The notes: generated by a model from the sequence alone, not told the origin. A DNA stretch of 30,171 nt from a virus (IMGVR_UViG_3300012665_000565:1-30171); one strand, 5' to 3'; positions 1-30,171 are shown, counted from the stretch's first letter. Numbers and translations: made by a program.

Positions 1-55
1 TCTCGTTTGTTTAGTTCTCGAACGTATTCTTTCAAATCATTTGAATTCATTCTGC
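1..55. repeat. 55-bp terminal direct repeat (copy at 30117-30171); circular assembly overlap
   Basis: First 55 nt are identical to the last 55 nt, and gene order continues seamlessly across the join. 55 is a common assembler k-mer. Confidence 0.95.
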
Positions 56-62
56 GGCCTCT

Positions 63-314
63 TTAAACAAACATTTTTCTAAATGGATTTTCAGGAGCCG
101 GTTCGCCTTTAGCATTAAGTTCATCTGCTAATGATTGCATCTCTGCTTTATTCAGGCTAAGTCCTTTAACAACTCCACCCCAATATGATCCACTACGAAC
201 TGATAACGCATCTAAACTATGAACTACTTGATAACCAGTGAGTCCATCCATATCATTACCAATAACTAACCATTTATTTTGATTAGCGTATTCTTGACAA
301 TAATTTTTTGTCAT
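63..314 (-). CDS. Early hypothetical protein (83 aa, start MTKNYCQ)
   Basis: The ORF-track start (395) runs through a promoter. The ATG at 314 follows GAGAAAGGTG and lies downstream of the TTGACA/TATAAT promoter. Confidence 0.75.
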   Translation of the reverse strand: MTKNYCQEYANQNKWLVIGNDMDGLTGYQVVHSLDALSVRSGSYWGGVVKGLSLNKAEMQSLADELNAKGEPAPENPFRKMFV

Positions 315-350
315 TTGTGCACCTTTCTCTTGTGCGTTGAACATAGTGTT

Positions 351-379
351 ATTATACGATAAAAGGGTGACTTTGTCAA
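351..379 (-). promoter_or_regulatory. Consensus sigma70 promoter
   Basis: TTGACA (379-374), 17-nt spacer, TATAAT (356-351). Confidence 0.9.
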
Positions 380-390
380 TCACCCTTTTA
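360..390. promoter_or_regulatory. 11-bp perfect inverted repeat enclosing the -35 box (operator and/or terminator)
   Basis: TAAAAGGGTGA (360-370), 9-nt spacer, TCACCCTTTTA (380-390), directly after the stop of 397..1323. Confidence 0.6.
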
Positions 391-396
391 ACCAAA

Positions 397-1323
397 TTAA
401 TTGTCTAATTCTTCACGTCCGGCATAATAAATGTCCTTGAGCGTTTTGATTGGAGGGCAACGATGTGCTACACCTTTGCGTTCCATATAACGAACAAATT
501 GTTTGTATAAACCAAAAGCCACACCATTATACCATTGGCCCAAACGGAATTCAGGGAAAGTGGCTTCACGATAGTTGCGACTTTCTGGTAAACGATGCAC
601 AAACCATTCTTGAAAACTTTTACCTAGAGCAATATTGGTGTTCATAAGTCCTCGATACTCATCGTGACTTAATAATTTAGTAGTGCCCTGTAACAAGATA
701 TCAAAGTTATCTGCTTCAGGAAAAGCCTGGCGAATCAATTTGGTAGCATAGATAGTTTCTGGCAATCCAAATTTAACGCACTTTTCAAAGCCTGCTCGCT
801 TAACCTGAGGAATCCCTTTGCCGAAATTAACTTTGCCACAGGCAAGTCCACAAGAAACCAAATTGCTTTTAATCATTAAAGCCTGTATATCTCCTGCTAA
901 TACCTCTGCCCAAAGCAGTTGCTCACGACTGACATTTCTACTGGCAACTCCATTTAGATAGGCAAATAGTTTGGCAGCATATTCTTTGTCATCTGTTTTG
1001 ATAATATGTGCAGGCACAGTTCGTTCTGTGGGCAATAGTGTTTTAACTATACTGGTTCTATGCTGTCCGTTAATCATAGTCTGTGTGCCATCACTGCGTT
1101 CAACTACGGTAACTACCCCAAATAGATTCCAATCAAGACATTCGCTTTTGGCAATGTAACGAACTACATCAATGTCATTAAAATCCCGCTGACTTTCATC
1201 CATTGGAGTGTCTACAGATACCTGTGTCATTGATGCTTTGGTGCCTAGTGGAGGTGAATTGATTAGATGTTGTAACTTTTCAGGTAAAGTTACAGGTGGC
1301 ACAATGTTTTGAATTGTTTGCAT
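397..1323 (-). CDS. ParB/Srx-superfamily (DGQHR-like) domain protein
   Basis: GVVTVVERSDG...MINGQHR motif followed by a 'VPAHII...AAKLFAYLN' segment; SD AAGGAG upstream. Confidence 0.65.
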   Translation of the reverse strand: MQTIQNIVPPVTLPEKLQHLINSPPLGTKASMTQVSVDTPMDESQRDFNDIDVVRYIAKSECLDWNLFGVVTVVERSDGTQTMINGQHRTSIVKTLLPTERTVPAHIIKTDDKEYAAKLFAYLNGVASRNVSREQLLWAEVLAGDIQALMIKSNLVSCGLACGKVNFGKGIPQVKRAGFEKCVKFGLPETIYATKLIRQAFPEADNFDILLQGTTKLLSHDEYRGLMNTNIALGKSFQEWFVHRLPESRNYREATFPEFRLGQWYNGVAFGLYKQFVRYMERKGVAHRCPPIKTLKDIYYAGREELDN

Positions 1324-1419
1324 TTGTTTCTCCTTTATTAAAAATGCAGTTTTAATATCTTAAACAAGATATCGTTATTCGAGTATTAAAAAATACTCTG
1401 TGTTACTTAACACATCTAT

Positions 1420-1448
1420 AGTATATGATAAAATTATAGAGATGTCAA
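1420..1448 (-). promoter_or_regulatory. sigma70 promoter for the ParB-like gene
   Basis: TTGACA (1448-1443), 17-nt spacer, TATACT (1425-1420). Confidence 0.85.
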
Positions 1449-1491
1449 TCAAATAGAAATCCAATTAGTTCTCTAAGATAATTTGGACTAT

Positions 1492-1880
1492 AGTTGATGT
1501 CTAAAGACATCAACTCATTTCGCTTCCGCTCATTCGTATGTCGCTTCGCTTTCTTTCTTCATTGAAGTAAATGACATAAGTGAGAAATACATATTAATTG
1601 ACTCGAATGTGGAGTCAAGAGGGGACAAATGTAGTTTCTGTATAAAAAAATATACTCACTACCTTTGTCCCTACCTCACTCACAAATCAATTAATGTGTA
1701 AGTCCCATCTCTGGAGAGGTATCTTAGGCTGCTTTATGAGAGAAGTTTGACTATGTGTAACTCTCAACCATTGCTGGTAGCAGTGGACTACACCCTAATG
1801 CAGTTATCTAAGATAACTTGCCTGCATATTATTGGGCGGTGTAGGATTTATCCCTATTATGAACTACACCTTTTTCTTTG
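1492..1880. other. Structured non-coding region; candidate replication origin or ncRNA
   Basis: Palindrome 1492-1515, pas-like tract 1518-1551, long rod 1588-1700, nested stems 1768-1870, no ORF in the track. Confidence 0.5.
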
Positions 1881-1890
1881 TCCAGGGTTC

Positions 1891-2205
1891 TTAGACTTTT
1901 GCCTTTAGTTGTTTAATTTTTGCCATTTGTTGTTGCCTTTTATTCATTGCCTGTTCGGCTCTAATAGTTATGTTTTCTAAGTCTTTGTGGTGTTTATTCT
2001 TGAGTGGAAATTTGCGAGTATATACCATACCCCAAAGTCCATTTATTTTAGCGTGATCCAAATCTGTAATATATTTGCCTAAGTCGTTTTTGATTAATGA
2101 CAGCAACACTAAATCGTCGGCACAAGGATGACTGCCTAAATCTTCAGCCTTAAATCCTCGACGCCAACAGAATAAATTAGTTTCGTGTTCAATGGATTTT
2201 GCCAT
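1891..2205 (-). CDS. Hypothetical protein (104 aa)
   Basis: ORF with AAAGGT SD-like sequence and its own promoter motifs upstream. Confidence 0.75.
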   Translation of the reverse strand: MAKSIEHETNLFCWRRGFKAEDLGSHPCADDLVLLSLIKNDLGKYITDLDHAKINGLWGMVYTRKFPLKNKHHKDLENITIRAEQAMNKRQQQMAKIKQLKAKV

Positions 2206-2229: not shown

Positions 2230-2243
2230 TATTTAGTATAACA
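2230..2243 (-). promoter_or_regulatory. Overlapping extended -10 (TGtTATACT) and T4-late-like CTAAATA promoter
   Basis: Minus strand reads TGTTATACTAAATA, ending 24 nt before the ATG at 2205. Confidence 0.55.
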
Positions 2244-2284: not shown

Positions 2285-2314
2285 AAAAGACGAAACCCCC
2301 AAGGCGGGGGTTTC
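2285..2314 (-). terminator. Rho-independent terminator
   Basis: GAAACCCCC-gcctt-GGGGGTTTC followed by GTCTTTT. Confidence 0.85.
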
Positions 2315-2399
2315 TAACAGGGCGGTTTCACAATGGCAATAGCGAAACTCTTTAATTGACAGCCTCATCCAGGTAGAATAGAGAATTTTTGTCCCTGCT
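2285..2399 (-). ncRNA. Putative ~115-nt late small RNA
   Basis: Perfect TATAAATA at 2412-2405, closing stem AGCAGGG/CCCUGUU, internal hairpin, strong terminator; G-U pairs favour the minus strand. Confidence 0.55.
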
Positions 2400-2407
2400 A
2401 CTTTTAT

Positions 2408-2905
2408 TTATAAAGGATCTTTTGTTTCAGGGCAAATTCTGATAATTCCGACCGATTTTGCTAAATTACCTTTACTGGCGTAAGCACCTTTGGTTTCACG
2501 TAAAAATGAGTTCCAAACAATACTTGCCTTTTGTGGATTTAAATTATATTCACCGGTATATGGATCTTGCGTCATTCCGCAGGTGTGGCACTTCCATCGC
2601 CAGATTGCTTTGGTTTGCGTTTGGTATAACTTCGCTTCTTTTTCACAACCGTTGTCGCAGATTTTTCCACACTCGCAGTTGTAGGGGGTGTGTTTGATTC
2701 TGGTAAGCATTGGGGCGTAGGTTGGATTAGTCCCATCAAATAACTCCATAAAGACTTCTTCGTGTTCATCTTGATATTTTTCCTCAGCGGACTTTCGCCC
2801 TCTTTTCTTTTTAGCGTTCAGGCTAGTTTCTCGTGGAGTGTCTGGTAATTTCCACTCTGCTACTTGAGAAAGTTTTTGTTTGAATAATTCGTCATCCATA
2901 AGCAT
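2408..2905 (-). CDS. Cys-rich, probably Zn-binding hypothetical protein
   Basis: CECGKICDNGC and CHTC motifs; basic KKKRGRK patch. Confidence 0.7.
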   Translation of the reverse strand: MLMDDELFKQKLSQVAEWKLPDTPRETSLNAKKKRGRKSAEEKYQDEHEEVFMELFDGTNPTYAPMLTRIKHTPYNCECGKICDNGCEKEAKLYQTQTKAIWRWKCHTCGMTQDPYTGEYNLNPQKASIVWNSFLRETKGAYASKGNLAKSVGIIRICPETKDPL

Positions 2906-2922
2906 AGTTATCTATGCAGGAT

Positions 2923-3165
2923 TTAGAACTTCATCAAAATGGTTCCGATTACACCAATTAGAGCAACAACAATACTCGATGCACTGGTAATGATTGTAGT
3001 CTTCAATGACTTCTGCCCATCAAGTATATCTTTCTGGACAGCATCCATTTTTATCTCCAGAGTGATTAATCTCAAGTCTAATTGCTTGTAGCGTTGAGCA
3101 CAGATGGCAGTATGGGCAGGAAGACTTTCGTTTTCAATGTCGCTGATTTCTGCTAAGTCACTCAT
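2923..3165 (-). CDS. Coiled-coil protein with C-terminal TM helix (holin-like candidate)
   Basis: Heptad-like N-terminal region and hydrophobic tail SIVVALIGVIGTILMKF; last gene of the fibre operon. Confidence 0.55.
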   Translation of the reverse strand: MSDLAEISDIENESLPAHTAICAQRYKQLDLRLITLEIKMDAVQKDILDGQKSLKTTIITSASSIVVALIGVIGTILMKF

Positions 3166-7309: not shown

Positions 7310-7322
7310 CTATTGCTCCTAG

Positions 7323-11544: not shown

Positions 11545-11552
11545 TATTTATA
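11545..11552 (-). promoter_or_regulatory. T4-type late promoter TATAAATA for the fibre module
   Basis: Exact T4 late consensus; a 9-bp hairpin (11517-11539) begins 6 nt downstream. Confidence 0.7.
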
Positions 11553-11600: not shown

Positions 11601-13466
11601 TTAGTAACCGTAAAAGGTTGTAGCGGTGCCTGTAATAATTCCATTAGGAGCCACTGAATTAAAACTAGTTATGATTCTAACAGGAAATCCTGCGGCGTTT
11701 ACACTGGATGCTGCAACGGTAGCAGTAGAAGTTACTGAAATAGTTGAAGGATTGCCTTTGGTAACGCTAACAGCAGTAGGAACTGTGGCTGTGGCTTCTC
11801 CTGCCTGAGGAACCGGTAAGTTTACATAGTCTTTAACCGTCATTGATTTTAATTGATTATCAGTGCCATCAAACACACCACACCAAATTGCAGGAACTTG
11901 AATATATACGCAGTTGGTGTCAGATGGCGGAGTTGGTGGTGCTGTATCATTGTCTAATACCGTAATACTAATTGTTCTTGTGCCTATGGTATTACAATAA
12001 TCGGCTGCTCCTGGCTCAACTTCTATGGTTAGTCCTTGTGTGCCTTGATAGATTGCATCATCGGTGGTATTAATTACTAGTGTGCCTGTCCCCCCAGTAA
12101 CTGATATATTGCCCGTCAACGCTGTGGTGACTTTACCTGTAGCAGTTCCTGTAATAACATATGGCACTGATGCAGTGGCTTTAGATCCTGTAGCAGTTAG
12201 AGTAATTGTTACTGATCCACCTTCTGTTATGCTAGCATTACTGCGTGATAATGAATAGGTATAATCTGTGGCTTCTCTAATGGTTACTGTAGTAGTTTGA
12301 CTTCCAATAGTAATAGTGGCTGTTTCAGCGCCTTCTACGCTGCCATCCGATACTGCGGTAAATGTTAAGGATCCTGAACCATTAGTTACGGTTACATTAC
12401 CTGTTAATGGAATGCTGATATCGCCTGCACTAACACCAGTAATTGAATACGGATAATTAAATGGCGGAATATCAAATAAACAACTAGTGCAGGTGTGTCC
12501 TACGGTAATTGTTACACTTTGTCCTTCACAGCAATTTTCTTTAGATCTTGTTATAGTTTCTAATGCGGGTTTTTTAGCACCGGCTAATAGTTTATCTAAT
12601 TCTTCGGCAGAAGTATCAGAAGGCTTAGTTTGACGCCCATATATAGGATTACCATTAGCGTCTGTGCCAGTTTGCACACGCCCAAATAATTTATTCAATA
12701 AACTATTGGCAATGCCTAATCCTATATTGGCAGCAATCATACGCCCAATACTACCTGCTACTCCGGCATCTTCTAATTGTTGAATAGTTTCGTTTTGTTG
12801 TTTAAGAAGAATACCTGTTTTTTTAGTTTTTTCTTTGTAAACAAGATTTGAGATGTTATAGACATTAGCATCATATTCTCTAGCAGTAATATTGATACCT
12901 ATAACATCTTCATCTACTTCTTCTAATTTTGTTACACGAAATAGTTTACTCGAATAGCCATACATTGTGCTGGTAACTGCAATTAAATCACCTGCTTTTA
13001 ATCCTAAACTAGTATAATCAGTGGTAAATGTTATTATTTTGTTTAATCTGGTTTGATTTAATTCAACCCCAGCAATATATTGTGCTTGGACAGGATCATT
13101 AATTAAATTTGTTTGAATCTGTAATGGATTATCTATTTCATTAGGAAATCTGCTGCCTTCGGGAATAACCAGTTCAATAAAATCAGTTTGATCTCTTAGA
13201 TTTTTGTGAGGAAACTCCATACTAACACTATTATAAAGTTCACTAACTCCTGACTCTGTAACCGTTATGTTTCCTATGATATTAGTATTATTATAACTTT
13301 TTACACTTGTGCCTGTGGTATTAATAACCACTGCCCATTTACCTTGACTAACATCAAAGGTTAGAAATGCCCCGCAGGCTGTGCAGATATCATTTAAATT
13401 TTGTAAAACAGTTTTATCAGTTGAAATAACGCCGTTAATTTTTAATGGTTGATATACGGTTGGCAT
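11601..13466 (-). CDS. Tail tip/hub protein C-terminal part with Ig/Calx-beta-like domains
   Basis: 'INGVISTDKTVLQNL...GKW.VVI...YNSV..EFP...L..GDLI.VT...FRV' hub pattern, then two 'EG.SVTIT...PY.ITG' domains. Confidence 0.75.
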   Translation of the reverse strand: MPTVYQPLKINGVISTDKTVLQNLNDICTACGAFLTFDVSQGKWAVVINTTGTSVKSYNNTNIIGNITVTESGVSELYNSVSMEFPHKNLRDQTDFIELVIPEGSRFPNEIDNPLQIQTNLINDPVQAQYIAGVELNQTRLNKIITFTTDYTSLGLKAGDLIAVTSTMYGYSSKLFRVTKLEEVDEDVIGINITAREYDANVYNISNLVYKEKTKKTGILLKQQNETIQQLEDAGVAGSIGRMIAANIGLGIANSLLNKLFGRVQTGTDANGNPIYGRQTKPSDTSAEELDKLLAGAKKPALETITRSKENCCEGQSVTITVGHTCTSCLFDIPPFNYPYSITGVSAGDISIPLTGNVTVTNGSGSLTFTAVSDGSVEGAETATITIGSQTTTVTIREATDYTYSLSRSNASITEGGSVTITLTATGSKATASVPYVITGTATGKVTTALTGNISVTGGTGTLVINTTDDAIYQGTQGLTIEVEPGAADYCNTIGTRTISITVLDNDTAPPTPPSDTNCVYIQVPAIWCGVFDGTDNQLKSMTVKDYVNLPVPQAGEATATVPTAVSVTKGNPSTISVTSTATVAASSVNAAGFPVRIITSFNSVAPNGIITGTATTFYGY

Positions 13467-13475
13467 ATTATTTCC

Positions 13476-20017: not shown

Positions 20018-20018
20018 A

Positions 20019-20315
20019 TTATCGCTTCCTTAATATTAATTGTAATTTTCTACGCAACCACTCTCTTAGAGGGCGAGTCATACCTCTTGGTGCTTGTTTT
20101 GAATATCCTTCATCTAATCTCTTAGCATAGGGATAATTGGCTCTAATTACACTATTGCTATATAGAGTGGTTTTGTTTCGAGCATTTCCTTTATCCTTAG
20201 GAGTCAATTGAATCATTTGTTGATGTGCTTGAGGGGGGATAGATTTTAGTTCTCTTTGCACAGCCACTAGAGTAGATGTTATCAAATCTCTAGTTACATC
20301 AACTTTTATTTTCAT
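20019..20315 (-). CDS. HK97 gp10-like tail completion protein
   Basis: TPKDKGNAR...YPYAKRLDEGYSKQAPRGM motif. Confidence 0.7.
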   Translation of the reverse strand: MKIKVDVTRDLITSTLVAVQRELKSIPPQAHQQMIQLTPKDKGNARNKTTLYSNSVIRANYPYAKRLDEGYSKQAPRGMTRPLREWLRRKLQLILRKR

Positions 20316-20593
20316 TTCCTTTCTCTCGCTCGCTTTATCATATCTAACATTTCTTGCTGAGTTAGATTCCGCGGCTTTGGTGCTTGACTTTGCCTTCCTG
20401 AATCTGCTTCAGCATCTTCTTGTTGTTTGTGTTGCCACATAATGCCTGTGTTGGCAACAAGAAGATCGAATGTTGATGCTGTAGCGAGGATTTCACTGGG
20501 TAATTTATGATATCTAGTGCAGATGTTGTCAATGGTAATCAACAGTTTGATATCGATGTCTTCCCAATTAATTTCCTCGCGGATTAGTTTCCC
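20312..20593 (-). CDS. Tail assembly chaperone GT extension (-1 frameshift product)
   Basis: The -1 frame is open from slippery G GGA AAC (20593-20587) into ORF 20312..20542. Confidence 0.8.
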   Translation of the reverse strand, partial: GKLIREEINWEDIDIKLLITIDNICTRYHKLPSEILATASTFDLLVANTGIMWQHKQQEDAEADSGRQSQAPKPRNLTQQEMLDMIKRARERK

Positions 20594-20880
20594 AACTTTT
20601 CTACAATTTTACCGATACATTTAATGAGAACCTGAGTGGGAACCATATTCTCATCTGTAATTAAGGCTTTACCGTTTTCGTCAAGAATTAAATCTTTGAC
20701 AACACCTACCATCTGACTCATATCTTTTTCTTGTGCCGATGCAATCTTTAGAAATACATCTATTGGTTGGCGATCCCAAGTATGGAATTCAATGGGTTCA
20801 CCAAATTCTTTAATGGTGGCTTCATCGTCAACACTTAGGGTAATGAGTTTGGGTTTTGCGGTTAGTTCTGAAAGTTTCAT
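20584..20880 (-). CDS. Tail assembly chaperone G
   Basis: Lies between major tail and tape measure; ends in a slippery heptamer. Confidence 0.8.
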   Translation of the reverse strand: MKLSELTAKPKLITLSVDDEATIKEFGEPIEFHTWDRQPIDVFLKIASAQEKDMSQMVGVVKDLILDENGKALITDENMVPTQVLIKCIGKIVEKLGN

Positions 20881-20883
20881 CTG

Positions 20884-21057
20884 TTAATCTCCTTGTCTGT
20901 CAATCAGTTCATTGGCAAGTAAAATAATAAATTTTATTCTACTTTGCGCTTTATCTATATCACCACGAGCACACTTTATTTCATTAGTGGCTTTAGCAAT
21001 TTCTGCTAATAAACTATCTAGCAATTCTTTGTCATTTTTGTTATCTATGACATCCAT
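20884..21057 (-). CDS. Small coiled-coil hypothetical protein (57 aa)
   Basis: GGAG 9 nt before the ATG at 21057 (alternative start 21072); CTAAATA motif upstream at 21075-21081. Confidence 0.65.
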   Translation of the reverse strand: MDVIDNKNDKELLDSLLAEIAKATNEIKCARGDIDKAQSRIKFIILLANELIDRQGD

Positions 21058-21089
21058 AAATCTTATCTCCATAATATTTAGTTAAGGCT

Positions 21090-21151: not shown

Positions 21152-21643
21152 TTAGGTCGCTGCTACGGTGTATTCACCTGATACGGTAATAGTAATTGGT
21201 GAAACCCATACTGGACTATCAGCACTAACGGTTGGTGCTAAACCAGTAATATAGCCAACACCTTTGATGAAAGTGTCGCTAGTAGAGTTTTCAACACGAA
21301 TAATAAAATTAATCAATGTCTTGTTGCGGCTGCAACCCATTAGTCCTTGTTCTGCAATAGTGCCAGTGATGCTGGCACCTAAACTTGTTCCAAAGAAACT
21401 TGCTTGATCCACAACTAGATTCATAGAAACAGAGTTTGTAGATGTAGTAGCAACTTGCTTTTTAGCAGTAGAATCTAATTGACTCCAAGTAAAAACGTCG
21501 TTAGCCGCGTTGATAGTAATGTCTTGCAATGCAGGAACTGATAGGGCACCTACTCCTTGTGTGATGTCATCAGTTCCTGACGCTACATCAAGGGTTAGTG
21601 TCACCTGATTTGCTGTCCCTGGTGCTGGGTTAATATATGCCAT
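21152..21643 (-). CDS. Major tail tube protein
   Basis: Synteny, size, C-terminal 'G.GYITGL.PTVS.D....SPITITVSG' pattern, followed by a terminator. Confidence 0.85.
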   Translation of the reverse strand: MAYINPAPGTANQVTLTLDVASGTDDITQGVGALSVPALQDITINAANDVFTWSQLDSTAKKQVATTSTNSVSMNLVVDQASFFGTSLGASITGTIAEQGLMGCSRNKTLINFIIRVENSTSDTFIKGVGYITGLAPTVSADSPVWVSPITITVSGEYTVAAT

Positions 21644-21655
21644 TTGGCAATCTCC

Positions 21656-22048
21656 TTATGTTAGTTTAATATATCGTAATTCTATTTCTGTAACGAGTTT
21701 GTCTGCTTCATAGGTTGTATTGACATCTACTTCACGACGGCTGAAGCCATCATTAGTTTGAATATCTTTGGCAGCCTTAACAATAGTGACAATCTCATCA
21801 TAGTTAGAAGGTAACTGCTTCGCGTCATTAGCGAAATAGAGTCTGACTCTAGTAGTTTCATTTGTTAGATTTAATCCACTAAAAGTTGTGATAACAGGTT
21901 CCATTACAAATTCATCTACATCTACATAAATCTTTTTAAGATTTTTAAGATATAAATTTTCTCCGGTTTCGTTCCAAGGCAATTCTGTAGCAGTAACAAA
22001 ACTACCTAGGTTTTGGTTTTGGAGATAATCAATAACGTCCTGTCTCAT
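21656..22048 (-). CDS. Tail terminator/connector protein
   Basis: 130 aa immediately before the major tail gene; synteny only. Confidence 0.55.
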   Translation of the reverse strand: MRQDVIDYLQNQNLGSFVTATELPWNETGENLYLKNLKKIYVDVDEFVMEPVITTFSGLNLTNETTRVRLYFANDAKQLPSNYDEIVTIVKAAKDIQTNDGFSRREVDVNTTYEADKLVTEIELRYIKLT

Positions 22049-22554
22049 CGCACTCTCTTAAGATTATATTGTCCTGGTTGTTTTTCATTAGACTCAATAG
22101 TTGCGTCATCATCAAAATCATACCAGTCACCAGCGGTAATCAACTCACCAAAGAGTTCATCGGCTCGCTGTGTGTAGTAACCCATCTTTTGTCTTTCTGC
22201 TGAATCTTCTTTGGAAAAATCAGCAATGCTTGGCAGAATAAAATCCGACAAGGCTGTGTAGACACATAGATCCGTAAAATCGTTTTGTCTTGCAATAATA
22301 CGATTTGGATCTAAGGCAGGCACATCTGCCACTGTGGTAAAGGTGATAGCATTACTACGTCTAATATAATAACTCTTCCACCAATCACTAGAGCGTAACT
22401 TGGTTAAGATACGCTCTGTGGCTCTAACAAGGCTTGCATCAACAATAGTGTCAGAAAGGCCCTCATTGGCTTCAAATAGACGTTGATCCTTATTCACAAC
22501 ATCCTGAAACTCTGCGAAACTTACTACGATGCTTGCTTCTTCAATGAAAGCCAT
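22045..22554 (-). CDS. Head-tail adaptor protein
   Basis: Helical 169-aa protein directly after the capsid gene; synteny. Confidence 0.6.
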   Translation of the reverse strand: MAFIEEASIVVSFAEFQDVVNKDQRLFEANEGLSDTIVDASLVRATERILTKLRSSDWWKSYYIRRSNAITFTTVADVPALDPNRIIARQNDFTDLCVYTALSDFILPSIADFSKEDSAERQKMGYYTQRADELFGELITAGDWYDFDDDATIESNEKQPGQYNLKRVR

Positions 22555-22568
22555 TTCTATCTCCTAAA

Positions 22569-23423
22569 TTAGGCTGGATCGACTAATGAACTGTCAGAAG
22601 TGATCTTAACACCATATGTGTCGTATAATTCTCCAACACCATAGTGTGCAGAAGCAACGATATCATCACCTAAGAATGAAGCACGTCTTTGTGTTTCGAT
22701 AGAGATATCACCAACTAAAGCAAGACCCAATGCATCACGGTGGAACACAGCACCAACGTAGTCACCTGCTGTGCCAGTGTCAGCAATGTTTGCTGATTCA
22801 AATACTGGAACACCAAATAACATACCAACATAACCTTGGCTCATTGCTTCGTTTTGAATGATACCAGCGTTAGGGTTTGCAAATGTGTTAGTTAAGTCTT
22901 TCTTCAAATCATAGGCAACATATGGGTGAACAACTGCTGCCAATGCATCGCCTGGAACAGCGTTAGCACGTAGACGTGCTACTGCTTGAGCAACAACGGC
23001 TGCAGACAATGCTGTAGAAGCACCACCAACACCTGTTGAGAAGCCAGAGAATAGAGCCAATAAATCTTGGTCAATTTTCTTAGCAATTGCTTCACCGAAT
23101 AAACGGCCCATATCAGCAACAACATTAGAGGCTGCAGAAGTGCGAGCCAAGTCTGTTAATAGTGTGCGGATAGCAACTGTAGAAACAGTTAATGTAACAC
23201 CGTCAGTTGACACTGCTGTGTTAGATACTTCATCACCTTCAGTAACAGCGGCTGCTGACTGAACTGGATAACGAGGAACGGTAATTGTCTTACCTTGTCC
23301 TGCAGGGATAGCATAATTTTTAACGAGTCCGCGCATAATAGAACGCTCGTTAGCAACGAACATTGCTTCTGCTGTAATTGCAGGTAGCAAGTCATTTAGA
23401 GTAGTAGTGGTAGAACCAGCCAT
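22569..23423 (-). CDS. Major capsid protein (HK97 fold)
   Basis: 'GKTITVP...A..VTEG...G..IA.KIDQDLL...VVHP...DL...G.VG.LFGVPVFES...VFHRDALG...IETQR...YGV' pattern. Confidence 0.92.
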   Translation of the reverse strand: MAGSTTTTLNDLLPAITAEAMFVANERSIMRGLVKNYAIPAGQGKTITVPRYPVQSAAAVTEGDEVSNTAVSTDGVTLTVSTVAIRTLLTDLARTSAASNVVADMGRLFGEAIAKKIDQDLLALFSGFSTGVGGASTALSAAVVAQAVARLRANAVPGDALAAVVHPYVAYDLKKDLTNTFANPNAGIIQNEAMSQGYVGMLFGVPVFESANIADTGTAGDYVGAVFHRDALGLALVGDISIETQRRASFLGDDIVASAHYGVGELYDTYGVKITSDSSLVDPA

Positions 23424-23446
23424 AATAAATTTTCCTTTTGTTTAAG

Positions 23447-24136
23447 TTATGCAAGACCCGATGTCTTGCGGTATTCTTTATATAAAGCACGGTGTTCAGG
23501 ATTTGACATATCTAATTTAGAGATATCAACTTTCTTAGACTGTGCTTTATCTACTATATTGCTTTTGGTTTGTGTTGTAGCAGGATTGGCTAACTTAAAG
23601 TGAGGATTTGTGTCTAAGAATTCTTTGACTAAATCATCTACGCCTATGGGTTCACCTTTGTCTGAATAACGAACTGAGCCCTTGCTATCTACTACTTCAA
23701 CTTCACCGCTTTCACCAAGTCGAATATTAGACGATAATAGTGCCTTTACTTGATCTGCATTCACAGCATTATATTTTGCTGCCGCAGATATTAAAGGTGT
23801 ATTAATCTTATATTCTTTGATGACAGCATCTCGTTTAGAGATTTCAGCATCTTTTTTAGCGGCTAATTCTTGTAGGGTTTTTTCAAATTCACCACGTTTC
23901 ATCTGTTCTTGTTGACGCTTTTGTTCGGCTTCAAGTTTAAGTTGACGTAGTTCTTCTGGATCGCCCAGTTCCTCATAGGGTTTAAGAAGTTTAGACTTTA
24001 AGGATGTTTTCATCCTTGCCATCATATCATCCACTTCCTTTTGAGAATATGTCTTAGTCGCTTGTGCCTGATTTTCAGCGTCTGTGGTGCTTGCGGCATC
24101 AGTTGCCATATCTTGAACCAATGTATTGTCTGACAT
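23447..24136 (-). CDS. Capsid scaffolding protein
   Basis: 'KTYSQKEVD' and 'GEFEK' motifs, coiled coil; SD AAGGAGG; upstream of the capsid gene. Confidence 0.85.
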   Translation of the reverse strand: MSDNTLVQDMATDAASTTDAENQAQATKTYSQKEVDDMMARMKTSLKSKLLKPYEELGDPEELRQLKLEAEQKRQQEQMKRGEFEKTLQELAAKKDAEISKRDAVIKEYKINTPLISAAAKYNAVNADQVKALLSSNIRLGESGEVEVVDSKGSVRYSDKGEPIGVDDLVKEFLDTNPHFKLANPATTQTKSNIVDKAQSKKVDISKLDMSNPEHRALYKEYRKTSGLA

Positions 24137-24170
24137 TGTGCATCGCCTCCTTTAGAGTGTTTAATAGTTT

Positions 24171-24206
24171 TATTTATTAAACTCTGGAGTATATGGTGTA
24201 TTTATT
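24171..24206 (-). promoter_or_regulatory. Two AATAAATA late-promoter-like motifs before the scaffold/capsid operon
   Basis: TAAATA cores at 24204-24199 and 24176-24171. Confidence 0.6.
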
Positions 24207-24213
24207 GGTTATG

Positions 24214-24366: not shown

Positions 24367-24367
24367 A

Positions 24368-24748
24368 TTAGTATTTGCCTTTGCCTGGCTTAACTGGTTT
24401 TTTCTTTTTCTTGTATGCTTTCATTTTACGCTCCTCTGGTGTTTTGTATGTTGGATGAATCCAGTCTGTGGTATTGTTAGTAATATAATCATTTAGATTT
24501 TCAGCAAACTTCATTAGTCTAAGTAAATCTATTTCACTTCGGGCCATATTGTTTTCTATCTTGCCCAACATTGAATTACAGCCTCTGTGTAGAACTCTTC
24601 TTATAACTCCGGATCTATGATCGTGGTCCAATACTGCTTTGCCGTCTTCAATGATATCCTTGCACAGAGCACAACGATATTCTTGTTGTTCCAGCAAATA
24701 ATTTCTTACTGCTGGTATTTCCGAATATTTTAACTTTGTGGTTCCCAT
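24368..24748 (-). CDS. Recombination endonuclease VII-like (T4 gp49 family) nuclease
   Basis: Q..RCALC...VLDHDH.SG.IR.VLH..CN..LGKIE. Confidence 0.85.
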   Translation of the reverse strand: MGTTKLKYSEIPAVRNYLLEQQEYRCALCKDIIEDGKAVLDHDHRSGVIRRVLHRGCNSMLGKIENNMARSEIDLLRLMKFAENLNDYITNNTTDWIHPTYKTPEERKMKAYKKKKKPVKPGKGKY

Positions 24749-26277
24749 TTAGCACACCAGAATAGAGGACGAACGTTAGCATCAAACTTAATACAATATC
24801 CTTCAGTTGATTTATAATATTCACAGTTCTGGCACCATTGATCCTGGGTCCCGCTTTCTTCAGCGGGCATATATGCAGGTGGTAATGATTGAGGAATAGC
24901 CTCACCATCTGCGTAGGTTCTATCCGGAATAGGATTAATATCTTGATAGGCTAGTAGTTCTTTTTCTTCACCCATCCACTCTAGAATATGCTCATCAATT
25001 TTGCGGATTACAATAGGATCTGTGGCAGTATTCTTGGCAGTTTGTAGTTGTGTAATTTCACCAGACTTGTCTCGAATGTTAAAACTATTTGGATATTCAA
25101 TTTTACCCATCCACTGACTGCCTTGATATTGAAAAAATAGTTCCCACATTTGCTCTTCGGCAAGTTCAAGATTATCAGCCTTTTCAGAGAGGCGGGCATT
25201 TAGTAATTGGAATTCTGTCTCCATCGCTACACCACTCATTGAAATACTTTGGGTTGCTCTAACAGCCCCAATGTTTGCCATTTTATCAATGGCTTCAATT
25301 GTGTGTTTTATTGCTGAATAGATACTCTCAACACTAGCGCCGCCAAACTCTAATAGATATGGTTTCAAGCCTGGATCTAAGTTCTCCGGCATATGAATCA
25401 TTGAACCAGCACCAATGCCTGCCTGCGTTTCAGGTGTCTTAACAAGACTTGGATGGCTGTCTAATCTAATACTTTGTTCAACTTCACTAGTAGCATTGTA
25501 TATAAACTTCTGTGCATCAGCAATGTCAGCAATATCACTGACACCAAAGCCACGTATAATGCTTCTACCATTGTAAACACAGACAGCAGGGATTTTACCT
25601 AATTGATTAATTTCTATAATTTCTTCTGTGATAATATCTTTGCTGGTGTCAAGAGTAGTTGTTCTGATTTCACTAGAAGTCCACTCTTTTAATGTTCTTA
25701 AATCGCCTGTAACATCTTCAACATAACGAATATAATCTAATTCTACTTTTCCATTGGCTTTACGACGATAACTCCAGTCTAATACTACCATAGGAGTTAG
25801 ATAGGAAACATATGGACGAATACCTGATGCTTGTTCTTCTGCTAGAGTTACAGCGCCAATATTTGGCTTGGTAACTATAATCCAGCAATGTCCAAACACC
25901 GAAGCCCAGGTTGAGACTTCCTTGAAAAACATATTGAGACTGCGTCCATCCATATCAGCATCACGCAGGAACATTTCAAGTTCAAAACTCACACCATTGT
26001 TGGTAAAATCTCTATCGGGTCCTTCACGGAATAGAAAACTATTGTAAACTGATATTACGCTCTGGCAGTGATTTTCTAAAGGTGTTGTTCTAAGTCTGGC
26101 AGCATATTCAGCGTCGGTTTCAAGTTGATAACGATGCAGATGTCCTGCTTGTCGATATTCTTCGCCACCGATGTATGATTCTAGCAGATATTGCCATTGA
26201 TCATAATAATTTTGATAAAGCGAATTACCTGTTAATAATCTCTTAAGTTCGTCTGACAGGGTTTCAATGACATTCAT
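24730..26277 (-). CDS. Portal protein with a C-terminal Cys4 (HiPIP-like) extension
   Basis: Follows terL; 'E....Y..RL...DAD.DG...FGH..I.V...N.LG.IP...SG.A' portal pattern. Confidence 0.9.
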   Translation of the reverse strand: MNVIETLSDELKRLLTGNSLYQNYYDQWQYLLESYIGGEEYRQAGHLHRYQLETDAEYAARLRTTPLENHCQSVISVYNSFLFREGPDRDFTNNGVSFELEMFLRDADMDGRSLNMFFKEVSTWASVFGHCWIIVTKPNIGAVTLAEEQASGIRPYVSYLTPMVVLDWSYRRKANGKVELDYIRYVEDVTGDLRTLKEWTSSEIRTTTLDTSKDIITEEIIEINQLGKIPAVCVYNGRSIIRGFGVSDIADIADAQKFIYNATSEVEQSIRLDSHPSLVKTPETQAGIGAGSMIHMPENLDPGLKPYLLEFGGASVESIYSAIKHTIEAIDKMANIGAVRATQSISMSGVAMETEFQLLNARLSEKADNLELAEEQMWELFFQYQGSQWMGKIEYPNSFNIRDKSGEITQLQTAKNTATDPIVIRKIDEHILEWMGEEKELLAYQDINPIPDRTYADGEAIPQSLPPAYMPAEESGTQDQWCQNCEYYKSTEGYCIKFDANVRPLFWCAKWEPQS

Positions 26278-26288
26278 TTAATGTATCC

Positions 26289-27530
26289 TCAATTTGTTGC
26301 CAGAACGTGTCCCCATCTTTGTGGTTTCAGCAAGTCTGGATCTATATCTCTACGCACGGGGAACAGATAATCAATCATATAACCAAGTGCGTCATTCATA
26401 TGATCGTAGCCACTTTCTTTGTCAGGCTGGCTACTACCTTCTTTATATGTTTGACGTTCAAGTCCTTCAATAGTATATTTACATTTAGGTTCTATAAACA
26501 AGCGTCTAATACCTATCGTATCGCACAAACGACTATTCACTGCATTAATCCTATCACGCACTGGTGTGTGAACTCTAGGACATTTTACTACAAAGCCTGC
26601 GTTAGACAAGATAGTAACATCAGTCTGTCCGCCAGCACTGGTTTTTCTTTGATTGCCGGCAGGATCAGGGTAAACCCAGACTTTGGATTTGGGGAAGCGT
26701 TGTTTTATTTCTAACACCATTTCTAAAGTGTTAGATGAAAACATTCTCACTTCATCTATGATATGTAAGGTATCTCCAGCCCGTGTTGCAACCACAGCAC
26801 TCATTGGATCTATGTTAAAATCGAGTCCCACATAGATAACATCAGGAGTGTTGCCAATGTATTTACGAGTATTTGCCTGTCTATCAAACGCATAGTATAT
26901 TCTACCTGAAAATGTTTCAAAAGTAGCCATATACTCTTGGCGAAATGTGCGTTCATCTAAATCACGCTTGGCAGATTCAATTTCTTCTTGCGGAACATTG
27001 CCACCTTCAATGGTAGTAAATGTGTAACTCTTCCAACTATCATTATCTAGACTATTCTGATATATTTCATAAGCCCAGTTGCCAATGCCCTTTGGTGTGC
27101 CGATGAATAGTGCCTTGCCCTGCTTGTCAGACAGAGTAGGACGAAGTGTTTCATACCACGCTTCTGGATCAATGTCAGCAAATTCATCTAGGCATATAAA
27201 GTCAAGTCCAACACCACGAAGGCTGTCATAATTATCAGCACCTTTGAGACTGATAGTAGAGCCATTCTTAAGTGTCAACGTAAGTTCTGTTTCGTTGTGT
27301 TTCTGCACCCAGTTAATATCAGAAAGTTTATTCTTAAGTTTACGCCACACAATTTGTTTTGCCATTTTATAACTGGGAGCCACATACCATACTTCACGGT
27401 TGGGTTGACGAGCGTGATAACAAAGTTCACGGATGGCTAGATGAGTTTTGCCAAAACGGCGACCCGCTACTACCACACGGAATCTAGTAGGATCGTTAGC
27501 AATAGTTTCCTGTGCTTGACTTAATGGCAT
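26289..27530 (-). CDS. terL: Terminase large subunit
   Basis: Walker A AGRRFGKT, Walker B FICLDE, IGTPKG coupling motif, GLDFN and DH..DA nuclease motifs. Confidence 0.96.
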   Translation of the reverse strand: MPLSQAQETIANDPTRFRVVVAGRRFGKTHLAIRELCYHARQPNREVWYVAPSYKMAKQIVWRKLKNKLSDINWVQKHNETELTLTLKNGSTISLKGADNYDSLRGVGLDFICLDEFADIDPEAWYETLRPTLSDKQGKALFIGTPKGIGNWAYEIYQNSLDNDSWKSYTFTTIEGGNVPQEEIESAKRDLDERTFRQEYMATFETFSGRIYYAFDRQANTRKYIGNTPDVIYVGLDFNIDPMSAVVATRAGDTLHIIDEVRMFSSNTLEMVLEIKQRFPKSKVWVYPDPAGNQRKTSAGGQTDVTILSNAGFVVKCPRVHTPVRDRINAVNSRLCDTIGIRRLFIEPKCKYTIEGLERQTYKEGSSQPDKESGYDHMNDALGYMIDYLFPVRRDIDPDLLKPQRWGHVLATN

Positions 27531-27598
27531 TAGAAACCCCTTAATATGGCTTCAATAGTAATGCCTATAATCATAAAGATAATCAGAGGAAACCACAT
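27530..27598 (-). CDS. 22-aa hydrophobic micropeptide (not in ORF track)
   Basis: MWFPLIIFMIIGITIEAILRGF; TAATG overlaps with both the terS stop and the terL start. Confidence 0.65.
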   Translation of the reverse strand: MWFPLIIFMIIGITIEAILRGF

Positions 27599-27987
27599 TA
27601 TTCGTCGGACCAAGGTAATGGTTGTTTTTCGTCACTGTTAACAGGAGTGTCGCTCATCCCTAATATATTCTTCGCAAGAAAAATTTGCACAGCGGCATTC
27701 ATATTTCTGCAGGCATTGTCCAGCATTGCCCTGCGTAGAGTAATCTTTAGTTCCTCACGCCCTTTTATAATAAAGGCGGCAAAATGTCGGGAGACATTAG
27801 ATTCTTCAATACCAAAGAAGTTGGCAATATCGCGGTTAGAGCATCCTAAGGCTGCTAGTTTTTGCACCTCATCGGGAGGCACTATCTTTTTGTCTCTGCC
27901 AATAGGAAATCCAAGAACTGTTCCTTCTGTAAGTTGTTTTTTACTAGGCTTTAGAGAGACGGCTCCGCTGTCGTGTATTTCATTCAT
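27598..27987 (-). CDS. terS: Terminase small subunit
   Basis: HTH 'V.KLA.LGCS..DIA.FFGI', 'LRRA...A...N...QIFL.KN.LG.SD'; upstream of terL; leaderless after AATAAATA. Confidence 0.8.
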   Translation of the reverse strand: MNEIHDSGAVSLKPSKKQLTEGTVLGFPIGRDKKIVPPDEVQKLAALGCSNRDIANFFGIEESNVSRHFAAFIIKGREELKITLRRAMLDNACRNMNAAVQIFLAKNILGMSDTPVNSDEKQPLPWSDE

Positions 27988-28023
27988 ACCAATATTTATT
28001 GCATCAGTATGAATCCCAGGGAG

Positions 28024-28299
28024 TTATTGGCTTTGTTGTTGTGATTTGGCAGACAGTAGTTGTATCTGGGTATCTTGCAGTATCATTTGATGTCTTAGAC
28101 TTTCTACAGATTTTTGTAGTCTGCTGTTCTGTAGTGTTAATTGCTCTATGACTTCTTGTTGATGATTATACTTAAAGGCTAAATCTTTCATTACTTCTGT
28201 GCCGTTATTAATGGCTATAGCACATTGCTGTATGTTCTGTTCACACATCAGTAGGGCAGTATGCGGATCCCATCCGGTGTTAAACATATCATCATCCAT
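28024..28299 (-). CDS. Coiled-coil hypothetical protein (91 aa, start MDDDMF)
   Basis: ATG at 28299 separated by 4 nt from TTAAATA; this start avoids overlap with the upstream gene. Confidence 0.65.
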   Translation of the reverse strand: MDDDMFNTGWDPHTALLMCEQNIQQCAIAINNGTEVMKDLAFKYNHQQEVIEQLTLQNSRLQKSVESLRHQMILQDTQIQLLSAKSQQQSQ

Positions 28300-28306
28300 A
28301 TGGTAT

Positions 28307-28708
28307 TTAAGCACCAAAACCAATCTGAAATCTAACTGGTTGTATATCATCTCTAAAGTGAGCCATAGCATTAAAGATATTTTCAATGTCTGTCATTTGT
28401 TTATTACTAAAATCACGCTGTTGAGGTTCTTTAAACATTATATTATTCACTATGCCGCCTATTACAGAACAGGGTGAGTTTTGTCCATTTTTGCCTTTGT
28501 GTAAATCTTTACGCTTTTTATGCCACCATTGATCTCTAATCCATATATCATCAAAGTTATCAGATGACGTTTTGTCATATTCAGCCATAATTGATAGTGC
28601 TCGAATACATTGTTGTAGAATCCAATTTTTGTCATCTTCGTCTATTTCTCTGTATTCAGTGCCAGCGGCGGTGTTTTTAGGTATGTATTTGATTATTCTT
28701 TGTGCCAT
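28307..28708 (-). CDS. Hypothetical protein (133 aa)
   Basis: Tightly packed ORF overlapping the upstream gene end. Confidence 0.7.
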   Translation of the reverse strand: MAQRIIKYIPKNTAAGTEYREIDEDDKNWILQQCIRALSIMAEYDKTSSDNFDDIWIRDQWWHKKRKDLHKGKNGQNSPCSVIGGIVNNIMFKEPQQRDFSNKQMTDIENIFNAMAHFRDDIQPVRFQIGFGA

Positions 28709-29010
28709 TTTTTTCTCTCTATTTTAAAAAGTTTCTGACGGCGTAGATGTTCAATACGAGGCATACACACAACATTGCCCCAAATCCACGCACCTGCAGG
28801 ATCTTCCCTGGTTAGGCAGTAATTATCGCTGCCTCTGCCTTTCATATCCCAGTGTTCTCTCCATAATATTTGGAACTGTTCGAATGACAGAGCAAATATT
28901 TCTTTACGATACATTGCCTGCGCTCGCATCTGTAGCCAAGCGCAATACTGCTCGTGATTAAGAGCACCTTGAACTTTCCAAACGTGTGGGCGAGGTCCTG
29001 ATCTGGGCAT
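28693..29010 (-). CDS. Putative HNH-like (beta-beta-alpha) protein
   Basis: 'LSFEQF..LW...GRG...YCLTR.D..G.W..GNV' resembles degenerate phage HNH nucleases; leaderless after CTAAATA. Confidence 0.5.
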   Translation of the reverse strand: MPRSGPRPHVWKVQGALNHEQYCAWLQMRAQAMYRKEIFALSFEQFQILWREHWDMKGRGSDNYCLTREDPAGAWIWGNVVCMPRIEHLRRQKLFKIERKKWHKE

Positions 29011-29046
29011 ATGTTTATTTAGCAGACTGAATAAAGACAGGGTTAA

Positions 29047-29343
29047 TTATGGCTGAAACATTGTGGTTAGGAACCACGTGGCAATTGTTTTATATCTGTC
29101 ATATGAACAGAATATCTTGCCTACTGGGCCTCTGTAGATACCGTCGTCAACAAAATGCAGTAGTTCAGGGCCCCAACCACCTCGATAAAAACGACTATTA
29201 GGATGTTTGATAGTCATAAACAAAGCGTGCCTATCGTTACGGGGCGACCACTCTTTTAGTTTTTTATATCTTGTAAGTTCTTCTATTTCCATTGAACCAC
29301 AGACAATATGCCATTGTTGTTTAACGACTTTGCGTGTAGCCAA
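29047..29343 (-). CDS. Hypothetical protein (98 aa)
   Basis: TTG start after AGGAG; overlaps the lipoprotein gene end. Confidence 0.6.
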   Translation of the reverse strand: MATRKVVKQQWHIVCGSMEIEELTRYKKLKEWSPRNDRHALFMTIKHPNSRFYRGGWGPELLHFVDDGIYRGPVGKIFCSYDRYKTIATWFLTTMFQP

Positions 29344-29542
29344 TTGGGGCTCCTAGAGGTTGTCCCTGTGGAGTAGAATAGATTGTGGTTCTGCCTGCCG
29401 AAGAACCACAGTATTTAGGCTGCACCTGTTGCCAATTTTGGACTTGACATCGATCCATACTGTCATAATGAGCGGCTAGCCAACGAGGTGGTGTTGCACA
29501 GCCTGTGATAAAAATTATTGGTATTATTAAAAGATATTTCAT
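29321..29542 (-). CDS. Small lipoprotein
   Basis: MKYLLIIPIIFITG-C signal peptide II/lipobox; SD GAGGAG. Confidence 0.8.
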   Translation of the reverse strand: MKYLLIIPIIFITGCATPPRWLAAHYDSMDRCQVQNWQQVQPKYCGSSAGRTTIYSTPQGQPLGAPIGYTQSR

Positions 29543-29636
29543 ATTGTTCTCCTCAATATGTTAATTAAGTTGGTGGGTTTCGGGCACATTACCCACCGGA
29601 ATGTTGAGAAAAGGAACCGTGACGCTCCTAGCCCAG

Positions 29637-29801
29637 TCACAAACCACGAGTCACTGCGGTTTGATGTAATTCTAATTGATCCAACCAGTATTGTAAATGC
29701 TCAAGATACTGCTGCCATTCTTCTTTTGAACCCTGCACCAATGCTTCATAATAGGCAATATTGGCACTAATACCAGCCTGGCTTAATAAATTATTATCCA
29801 T
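29637..29801 (-). CDS. Hypothetical protein (54 aa, not in ORF track)
   Basis: MDNNLLSQAGISANIAYYEALVQGSKEEWQQYLEHLQYWLDQLELHQTAVTRGL; start overlaps the upstream stop region. Confidence 0.6.
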   Translation of the reverse strand: MDNNLLSQAGISANIAYYEALVQGSKEEWQQYLEHLQYWLDQLELHQTAVTRGL

Positions 29802-30036
29802 TACAGCCACAACCTTCTGGACCTGCTAATTCCTCTAAAGCAGGTAATTCAACTTGTTTTTGGACCCAATCTTCTGCCCAATCTTCTGCATCTGATTCAA
29901 TGTCAAATGCATCACTTTCTGCTTCGTGTCCGCAACAAAAACAATAGACTAGATATTTCTTAGTAGTGAGATTTTGTAGAACCTGTGCAGTTCTCTTGCC
30001 CTCTACATATTCACTGAGATATAACATTTCTGGCAT
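29794..30036 (-). CDS. Acidic, Cys-containing hypothetical protein (80 aa)
   Basis: SD AAGGAAG; CFCCGH, 'AEDWAEDWV', C-terminal GCGC. Confidence 0.7.
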   Translation of the reverse strand: MPEMLYLSEYVEGKRTAQVLQNLTTKKYLVYCFCCGHEAESDAFDIESDAEDWAEDWVQKQVELPALEELAGPEGCGCNG

Positions 30037-30166
30037 TTTGTTCTTCCTTGATCCGTTTTCTTAACGCTTGTATTTTATTTATAGCCTCTAGTCTACGCTG
30101 TTCGTGTTCAAGTAGTTCTCGTTTGTTTAGTTCTCGAACGTATTCTTTCAAATCATTTGAATTCAT
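30011..30166 (-). CDS. Coiled-coil hypothetical protein (51 aa, spans the circular junction)
   Basis: MNSNDLKEYVRELNKRELLEHEQRRLEAINKIQALRKRIKEEQNARNVISQ; its SD (AGAGG) is found only at positions 58-62 at the other end of the window. Confidence 0.7.
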   Translation of the reverse strand: MNSNDLKEYVRELNKRELLEHEQRRLEAINKIQALRKRIKEEQNARNVISQ

Positions 30167-30171
30167 TCTGC

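Follow-up and report, generated by a model that had tools for sequence, protein, structure and literature searches.

Known phage satellites take capsids or tails from other phages. The island I55 is packaged by a jumbo phage (PMC12772148), Ando and the EPIPs are described as lacking tails (PMC13587820, PMC12822802) and Phanie borrows the tail of its helper (PMC11476376). MiniFlayer and MulchRoom, two satellite viruses of Streptomyces, are described as having a virulent helper, capsid and packaging genes of their own and no primase (PMC10690885). The accessible text of a 2026 review names for large phages only the satellites of ICP1, the MindFlayer virus and the jumbo-phage island (PMC13359090), and in that of a second review satellite and gp55 are both absent as terms (PMC13282480). 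Here we describe the virus record IMGVR_UViG_3300012665_000565, held whole in IMG/VR (30,171 nucleotides (nt), 38 % GC; the window, by which we mean the entire stretch analysed), and its relatives, a family which probably consists of satellite viruses that encode their own virion and are controlled by a helper phage's late sigma factor. A search of the literature, with subscription journals mostly outside its coverage, found no description of a gp55-dependent, virion-encoding, fully tailed satellite.

Virion genes and late-type boxes

An exact 55-nt end repeat (1-55 and 30117-30171), classed by IMG/VR as direct terminal repeats and likely an assembly overlap, closes the window to a circle whose minus strand carries every long open reading frame (ORF). 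A Pfam and PHROGs scan of 36 ORFs matched the large terminase subunit (TerL), a small-subunit-like protein (TerS), portal, scaffold, major capsid, neck, tape measure, tail-tip, LamG and other fibre, gp77/gp80-like adaptor and endonuclease VII proteins. Repeat and matches together bear out the original prediction of a closed genome with a complete head, tail and fibre set. These head and tail genes are siphophage-like and not T4-like, and the window shows none of the T4-like hallmarks (gp55-type sigma factor, T4-type capsid or portal, contractile tail, own replisome). In the same 36 ORFs polymerase, helicase, primase, single-stranded DNA-binding protein (SSB), integrase, repressor, sigma factor and endolysin were all without a match; NCBIfam matched none of 30 window ORFs, six of them opposite-strand frames, and no transfer RNA was found in the window. 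The functions predicted to be missing, from polymerase to endolysin, were thus unmatched, but lysis genes are not wholly absent because an 80-amino acid (aa) holin-like ORF (2923-3165) is present, with a coiled coil and a C-terminal hydrophobic helix; its positional counterpart matches XhlA/holin weakly.

Promoter words divide the genome. Consensus sigma70 sites were found at 379-351 (12/12), ahead of the small-ORF run, and at 1448-1420 (11/12), ahead of the ParB-like gene, and none above 10/12 was found in 20000-30171; positions 4000-20000 were scanned by the strict pattern only, which hit just these two sites window-wide. The gp55 promoters of T4 are described as an 8-bp box without a -35 element that is read by gp55 (PMC2988020). 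The exact T4 8-mer TATAAATA occurs three times in the window against 3.56 expected and HTAAATA is depleted (16 against 38 expected), so that the late-box signal of the window lies in placement and strand and not in count; counting the exact 8-mer as a promoter signal was rejected for lack of over-representation. Fifteen of the 18 TAAATA copies are on the coding strand, 10 of these 15 end within the 7.5 % of the window that is non-coding (p 1e-8), and these 10 stand 8-71 nt ahead of the genes for the HNH-like protein, TerS, the scaffold, the tail block, the gp80-like protein and the 104-aa ORF. Near the boxes of the window a -35 hexamer is matched at best at 2-4 of 6 positions, in keeping with gp55 promoters (PMC2988020). 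The boxes therefore have what marks gp55-type late promoters, a TATAAATA-like box with relaxed first bases, no -35 element and a place before late genes, and the predicted T4-late-like motifs ahead of the other genes were confirmed by TAAATA position and strand, not by copy number. One TATAAATA lies within the 51-aa ORF, at 30076-30083, and may drive the small ORFs as well.

We gathered relatives by terminase, endonuclease, fibre and RNA-pattern searches, taking 28 records whole and adding two GenBank genomes. Non-coding placement of TAAATA is shared by 22 genomes including the window (two near-identical pairs, several partial), with p <= 2.4e-4 per genome in 22/22, and p was 0.04-1 in all nine controls, comprising five sister phages (HTVC111P, MN698245, and G007-G010; terminase 53-56 % identical) and four unrelated phages of 32-37 kb; boxes that overlap stop codons enter the test and the higher AT content of spacers is ignored, for the controls as for the family. 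Derived de novo, TAAATA and ATAAATA were the top non-coding words of the first 14 family genomes, TAAATA in 14/14, with 107 non-coding and 36 coding copies of TAAATA in a pool which takes in two near-identical pairs. Among the matches listed, TAAATA boxes stand at equivalent places in the relatives. No strict sigma70 promoter was found in the complete genomes G014, G015 and G023. In a portal tree of 24 rows whose root is not known, leaving out G005, G013 and short matches, one branch (100/99) parts 19 motif genomes from five non-motif genomes. Seven of the motif genomes are closed circles of 28.0-31.1 kb that close at different points, and four of the seven share the order of 13 marker genes.

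The features of the window are as follows (minus strand where marked -).

1..55 and 30117-30171, terminal repeat, exact; circle closure
63..344, -, small early ORF; no relatives in the fetched loci
351..379, -, perfect sigma70-type promoter (TTGACA-17-TATAAT) ahead of the small-ORF run; likely early; relatives have similar sites
397..1323, -, ParB/Noc-fold protein, 308 aa; accessory, 2/22 motif genomes
1420..1448, -, sigma70-type promoter, 11/12, serving the ParB-like gene
1490..1890, -, non-coding stretch with strong folding (z -5.6); candidate for an origin or an RNA
1495..1551, -, non-coding element of 57 nt, conserved, with GCGA-AGCG repeats and a hairpin; origin candidate
1891..2205, -, 104-aa ORF behind the second late box
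2230..2235, -, TAAATA late box 3' of the small-RNA terminator; position conserved
2285..2403, -, conserved structured RNA of ~120 nt, ending in an intrinsic terminator (2314-2292)
2405..2412, -, TATAAATA late box over the zinc-ribbon stop codon; predicted small-RNA promoter
2408..2905, -, C4 zinc-ribbon protein, 165 aa; core, family marker, 19/22 motif genomes
2923..3165, -, holin-like ORF, coiled coil and hydrophobic helix
3165..11479, -, fibre/adaptor block (Pfam/PHROGs): gp77-like adaptor, 1266-aa fibre-like, LamG, 542-aa fibre and gp80-like proteins
11545..11552, -, TATAAATA late box ahead of the gp80-like gene; position conserved
11601..21072, -, tail block: 62-aa ORF, chaperone-like ORFs, neck-like ORF, tape measure, distal-tail/hub-like and tip proteins
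21075..21080, -, TAAATA late box opening the tail block; position conserved
21152..24136, -, scaffold, major capsid, two connector-like ORFs and putative tail tube (Pfam/PHROGs)
24171..24176, -, TAAATA late box ahead of the scaffold gene; RNA contigs of a relative stop at 24166 and 24161
24368..24748, -, endonuclease VII-family resolvase, accessory (Pfam/PHROGs)
24730..27987, -, portal, terminase large and small subunits (Pfam/PHROGs)
27993..27998, -, TAAATA late box 11 nt ahead of TerS; position conserved
28024..29010, -, HNH-like 105-aa core ORF (a homologue matches HNH phrog_3377 at 2e-4), 133-aa ORF and coiled-coil ORF
29016..29021, -, TAAATA late box 11 nt ahead of the HNH-like ORF; position conserved
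29047..30166, -, small early-region ORFs: 81-98-aa GGWGPE protein, lipoprotein, 80-aa and 51-aa ORFs; not family-wide

The small lipoprotein (29321-29542, minus strand) has two additional conserved cysteines and 13 distinct homologues in the fetched loci, and could block entry by other phages. The 1266-aa fibre-like gene holds a perfect 300-nt tandem repeat of 2.2 copies (4959-5623), a recent duplication or an assembly artefact. Searches with LamG and fibre proteins gave close matches in small contigs only and 27-36 % matches in 100-320-kb contigs. DSL-LC06 (L149, OR003941), G004 and G022 carry glycosyl- and methyltransferase-like cargo behind late boxes, possibly serving glycosylation of the virion or of the host surface.

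Missing functions and a link to jumbo phages

The absences extend to the relatives. No initiator, primase, helicase, polymerase, SSB, recombinase, integrase or endolysin was recognised in 75 ORFs of 14 relatives (70 of 93 cluster representatives without a window match and five with one) or in 26 more chosen by eye from six further genomes, and what did match were methyltransferases, HNH, NUMOD3 and SegE nucleases, an AAA ATPase, and Dps-like and XhlA/holin-like proteins. Two weak sub-cut-off Pfam matches were discounted, Sigma70_r4_2 at E 0.0035, located within an HNH protein, and the 5'-3' exonuclease SAM fold at E 0.008. The same scan of the controls readily saw genes of these kinds among 29 ORFs picked from the four unrelated phages and in the sisters G007 and G008 (38 of 60 ORFs). 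Together with the annotation of HTVC111P, which lists a DnaD protein and a lysozyme, the sisters give DnaD/primosomal, endolysin, holin or lysozyme calls. A six-frame search for the late-sigma families phrog_12791 and phrog_234 found neither in 16 family genomes and was positive in 7 of 12 large-phage records, five of the 12 having been picked as positives. Own encapsidation machinery and a lack of recognisable key replication genes, two marks of a satellite virus in the available text of PMC10690885 beside its need of a helper virus to multiply, are both found here. No early ORF is common to the whole family; the most widespread, the GGWGPE protein, occurs in 9 of the 31 genomes searched, and neither the Atlas nor the PDB gave a usable match to its fold.

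The most conserved protein without a named function is the C4 zinc-ribbon protein, found in 19 of the 22 motif genomes and not in G002, G004 and DSL-LC06, with 575 representatives at 50 % clustering; its gene is the last of a late unit. We could assign it no known fold (model pLDDT 70; no PDB match at Z >= 5; an empty PDB profile search), and its viral structure matches were uncharacterised proteins of uncultured phages only, with Atlas matches under 0.9; the failed match does not exclude a known fold.

The nearest outside relatives of two accessory genes, the SegE nuclease and the ParB-like gene, belong to jumbo T4-related phages (PA5oct/CBB/GAP32-like). SegE-type nucleases occur in four relatives (G001, G005, G006, G021) and not in the window, and their nearest outside homologues are 60-69 % identical and lie on 36-60-kb contigs; in each of the 11 loci that we inspected the neighbours are gp46/gp47 and genes for a T4-type portal and capsid. 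Candidate sigma genes near these homologues match phrog_12791 in 7/7 cases (E <= 2e-62) and are closest (40-46 %) to those of the PA5oct group, Phosso, Atu_ph07 and 350-380-kb coliphages; the contigs are rated 10-17 % complete, implying about 350 kb. TAAATA also ranks first among the non-coding hexamers of 18 such large-phage loci, and its logo there resembles that of the family. For the jumbo phages CBB and GAP32, RpoD-like promoters ahead of short early ORFs and a predicted late motif ATAAATA are reported (PMC5259590), and PA5oct is described as relying on host polymerase (PMC7318152). From the shared motif and the gene sharing we infer that the TAAATA boxes are read by a gp55-type sigma factor. 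The original prediction of a T4-like helper is thus supported as to dependence on its late transcription, because of the family-wide motif placement, the matched controls, the absence of gp55 families and the gene sharing with gp55-encoding jumbo phages, and not as to a ParB-based episome.

Other genes shared or comparable with larger phages were seen. A DNA methyltransferase on a 316-kb contig (L509:17222-17908) is 64 % identical to one of a family genome (G014:19717-20445), reflecting either more gene sharing or a matching of helper methylation. ORFs of two relatives, L316:8868-9380 (G030) and L151:3222-4082 (G011), encode a Dps-like protein and an AAA ATPase (phrog_1250) whose best isolate matches are mostly in 140-380-kb phages.

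The ParB-like protein of the window has a ParB/Noc-like fold (Foldseek E 0.013-0.02, probability 0.89-0.98), and neither ParA nor Rep was found in the window by Pfam/PHROGs (36 ORFs) or NCBIfam (30 ORFs). Homologues were found in 29 metagenome loci of at least 3 kb, four being family contigs; the others, six of which were read, include a 315,778-nt contig (L509) and a contig on which the adjoining RNase H-like gene has 53 % identity to PA5oct-group phages. Homologues thus also sit in accessory regions of large lytic-type phage contigs. Of the ParA, ParB and replication initiator core that characterises ParABS phage-plasmids the window shows a ParB-like fold only, and with a ParB-like gene that is accessory (2/22 motif genomes) we rejected it as a maintenance core; the episomal persistence that had been ascribed to it is unsupported. 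The sigma70 promoters imply no carrier state either, since sigma70-type early promoters before short ORFs are likewise predicted in the candidate helper group (PMC5259590, PMC7318152).

The resolvase beside the portal had also been taken as a tie to T4 gp49. It is 29 % identical to gp49 over 90 aa, and its best isolate matches (43-46 %) are in 40-43-kb phages, mostly annotated endonuclease VII and beside an exonuclease, so that with an accessory gene closer to these enzymes than to gp49 we abandoned this link; the predicted endonuclease VII identity is at family level only. In several relatives a conserved ORF between portal and scaffold (L164:7966-8382, L306:11966-12310 and kin) sits in or near the slot that endonuclease VII uses in the window.

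Small RNA and origin-like stretch

At 2285-2412 (minus strand) a late box overlapping the zinc-ribbon stop codon is followed by a predicted RNA of ~120 nt and an intrinsic terminator. A pattern search for this small RNA matched 24 contigs, all 24 viral and <=31.9 kb; the pattern includes the late box, which was also found independently through the zinc-ribbon protein. Across 23 aligned sequences (the window and 22 contigs) 9 of 25 pairs covary, and pairing holds in 99 % of cells against 87 % when shuffled and at most 54 % when slid. With nothing near the gathering score of Rfam in the window or five relative loci, the structured RNA behind its own late box is a new motif; G012-G015 have a longer variant in the same place. 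An antisense role against the next late leader found no support: loop UGCCA faces TGGCA in 19/19 leaders, and the duplex energies did not beat those of random windows (8-72 of 100 controls were as good).

A second late box lies 35-52 nt past the terminator in 18 of 19 distinct copies. Behind it comes a non-coding stretch of 400-550 nt that closes with the conserved 57-nt element; of 528 loci, 41 have this element and every one of them is a family contig. In G001 this stretch (~500 nt, L129:10262-10800, minus strand) is 76-88 % conserved in G003, G012, G018, G019, G021 and G022 and folds no better than shuffles (z -1.3), unlike that of the window; the G001 version begins with repeated GGCA words. 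T4 has R-loop origins. By analogy, the stretch at 1490-1890 may be a late-promoter-primed origin, the weakest step of our account.

River sequencing runs hold a relative of the window at under 10 % of sampled words. In two studies the unit from scaffold to tail tube (21150-24166) is covered by RNA contigs of this relative, which stop at 24166 and 24161, 5 and 10 nt past the scaffold box located in the window at 24171-24176, whereas DNA contigs run past the box to 25029; contigs cannot show starts, and these ends are a weak hint. The runs gave next to no cover of the small RNA, which is evidence neither way.

Competing explanations and known systems

Under the satellite reading, the particle would inject into the helper's host, where host RNA polymerase would use the two sigma70-type promoters to make small accessory proteins. 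Appearance of the helper gp55 would then switch on the TAAATA units, including the 120-nt structured RNA and the non-coding stretch, which may be, as the least certain step, a transcription-primed origin for the helper replisome. Its own terminase would pack its own small heads and the helper endolysin would free both viruses, DNA replication as well as lysis probably being supplied by the helper. The satellite could meet its helper by waiting in the cell, by infecting an already-infected cell or by co-entry. We lean slightly towards a broader view of this freshwater lineage, as large and common and as bacterial 'virophages': complete tailed viruses whose autonomous siphophage ancestors gave up replication, lysis and regulation, and whose genome was rewired to the late sigma factor of T4-related jumbo phages, a rewiring that takes in the small RNA and possibly the origin.

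Several observations weigh against the satellite reading. We infer the helper, the host, the dependence and the co-infection alike, and the exact T4 8-mer is in no excess. SegE-type nucleases are mobile and common, the first 3.5 kb of the window had no DNA match in five large-phage records, and early-ORF homologues lie only on contigs of <=32 kb and <=63 kb. Low-depth RNA contigs occur upstream of the scaffold box and one RNA contig crosses the site of the gp80 box. Many small ORFs and the core zinc-ribbon protein match no known fold, and a self-made late activator could be among such ORFs. Some relatives have an ORF of 170-570 aa without an assigned function in the origin-like slot; that of 569 aa in G027 (L325:1676-3385, minus strand), absent from the other 30 genomes searched, had no Pfam, PHROG or PDB match and was named by no tool, and has by eye what we take to be polymerase-A-like motifs.

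An unlikely alternative is an autonomous small lytic phage whose DNA is copied by the host from a cis origin, with one unrecognised protein, the zinc-ribbon protein or the product of a small early ORF, steering polymerase to TAAATA and another acting as lysin or tail enzyme. The ORFs without family or fold, the retained holin-like gene, the possible G027 replicase and the widespread zinc-ribbon protein, which is perhaps injected, would all suit it. It would however need three functions to be hidden at once which the sister phages show plainly, in a family sharing no early gene throughout and lacking strict sigma70 promoters in three complete members; the zinc-ribbon gene, last in a late unit, was not found in three motif genomes, and the motif is the same as in the gp55-encoding jumbo phages that share genes with the family. 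A phage-plasmid kept as an episome by the ParB-like protein and a host-primed origin, and induced by infection with a T4-like phage, is quite improbable. It could draw on the ParB/Noc-like fold behind its own sigma70 promoter, the lipoprotein, the conserved non-coding element and the need of a satellite without integrase for some route to its helper; the rarity of the ParB-like gene, the failure to find ParA or Rep in the window and the homologues in accessory regions of large phages argue against it. So do the bacterial and archaeal species genomes, where 29 terminase loci included no close prophage (best 55-57 %, on contigs of 3-12 kb). A carrier state by other means would be compatible with the satellite reading. 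That the window is a late-gene fragment of some larger phage genome, circularised in error, as the overlap-like 55-nt repeat and the perfect 300-nt tandem repeat in a fibre gene might suggest, is largely refuted by the seven circles of 28.0-31.1 kb with different closure points, four in a common marker order; the small-RNA contigs never exceed 31.9 kb, head and tail are siphophage-like and not T4-like, and we regard this as very improbable indeed.

If the satellite reading is true, a full tailed virus takes its transcription from a jumbo phage, which likely serves it for replication and lysis too. Jumbo T4-related phages, with PA5oct, CBB and Atu_ph07 as cultured relatives of the candidate helper, would gain a dedicated viral parasite; the satellite-virus concept, so far drawn from two Streptomyces isolates, would take in an environmental family that is apparently large, and many 30-kb 'complete phages' of freshwater viromes would not be independent predators. 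Misplaced promoter words together with missing genes would offer a general route to satellite viruses in metagenomes.

Among sequenced phages DSL-LC06 (OR003941, proposed 'Nanhuiviridae') is alike in being a 29.8-kb circle with a TerL 53 % identical, 8 of 9 TAAATA copies non-coding, a GenBank table that lists neither replication nor lysis genes and a place on the motif side of the portal tree, but is distant, with about 12 shared ORFs at 22-56 %. The accessible text of its description gives no satellite reading, with 0 occurrences of 'satellite' (PMC10611076). The HTVC111P-like pelagiphages resemble the family in terminase, portal, capsid and genome size and differ in having DnaD/primosomal, lysozyme/endolysin, holin and regulator genes and no TAAATA motif. 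Virophages of giant viruses use the late promoters of the giant virus, and many encode their own replication proteins; they infect eukaryotic hosts and have an unrelated virion. They are alike in having their own virion and depending on the expression machinery of a giant virus (PMC13359090). Late transcription in T4 and in CBB/GAP32/PA5oct-like phages shares the TA/ATAAATA box without a -35 element and, as described, sigma70 early promoters; here the boxes are on a siphophage-like genome that lacks gp55 families.

MiniFlayer and MulchRoom, as described in PMC10690885, are closest in kind, with own capsid and packaging genes, no primase and accessory HNH and GIY-YIG nucleases, and with no integrase reported for MiniFlayer. 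They differ in having 20-26 genes; MulchRoom apparently borrows the helper tail and has an integrase, and MiniFlayer has short fibres that bind the helper's neck, whereas the window family has a full tape-measure tail and fibres. The hook of the window family would be the helper late sigma factor; the word 'promoter' is absent from the main text of PMC10690885. P4, phage-inducible chromosomal islands (PICIs), the kind that forms capsids (cf-PICIs), PICI-like elements (PLEs), I55, Ando, the EPIPs and Phanie are likewise small and need a helper phage, which is a jumbo phage for I55 and a large lytic phage for PLE. The integrase and own replicase combined with helper capsid or tail that define PICI, cf-PICI, P4 and PLE are not seen in the window, which has its own tail genes and no integrase or primase match. 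According to their descriptions these elements borrow capsids or tails and most integrate or self-replicate, whereas the window family makes all of its structural parts and apparently borrows enzymes.

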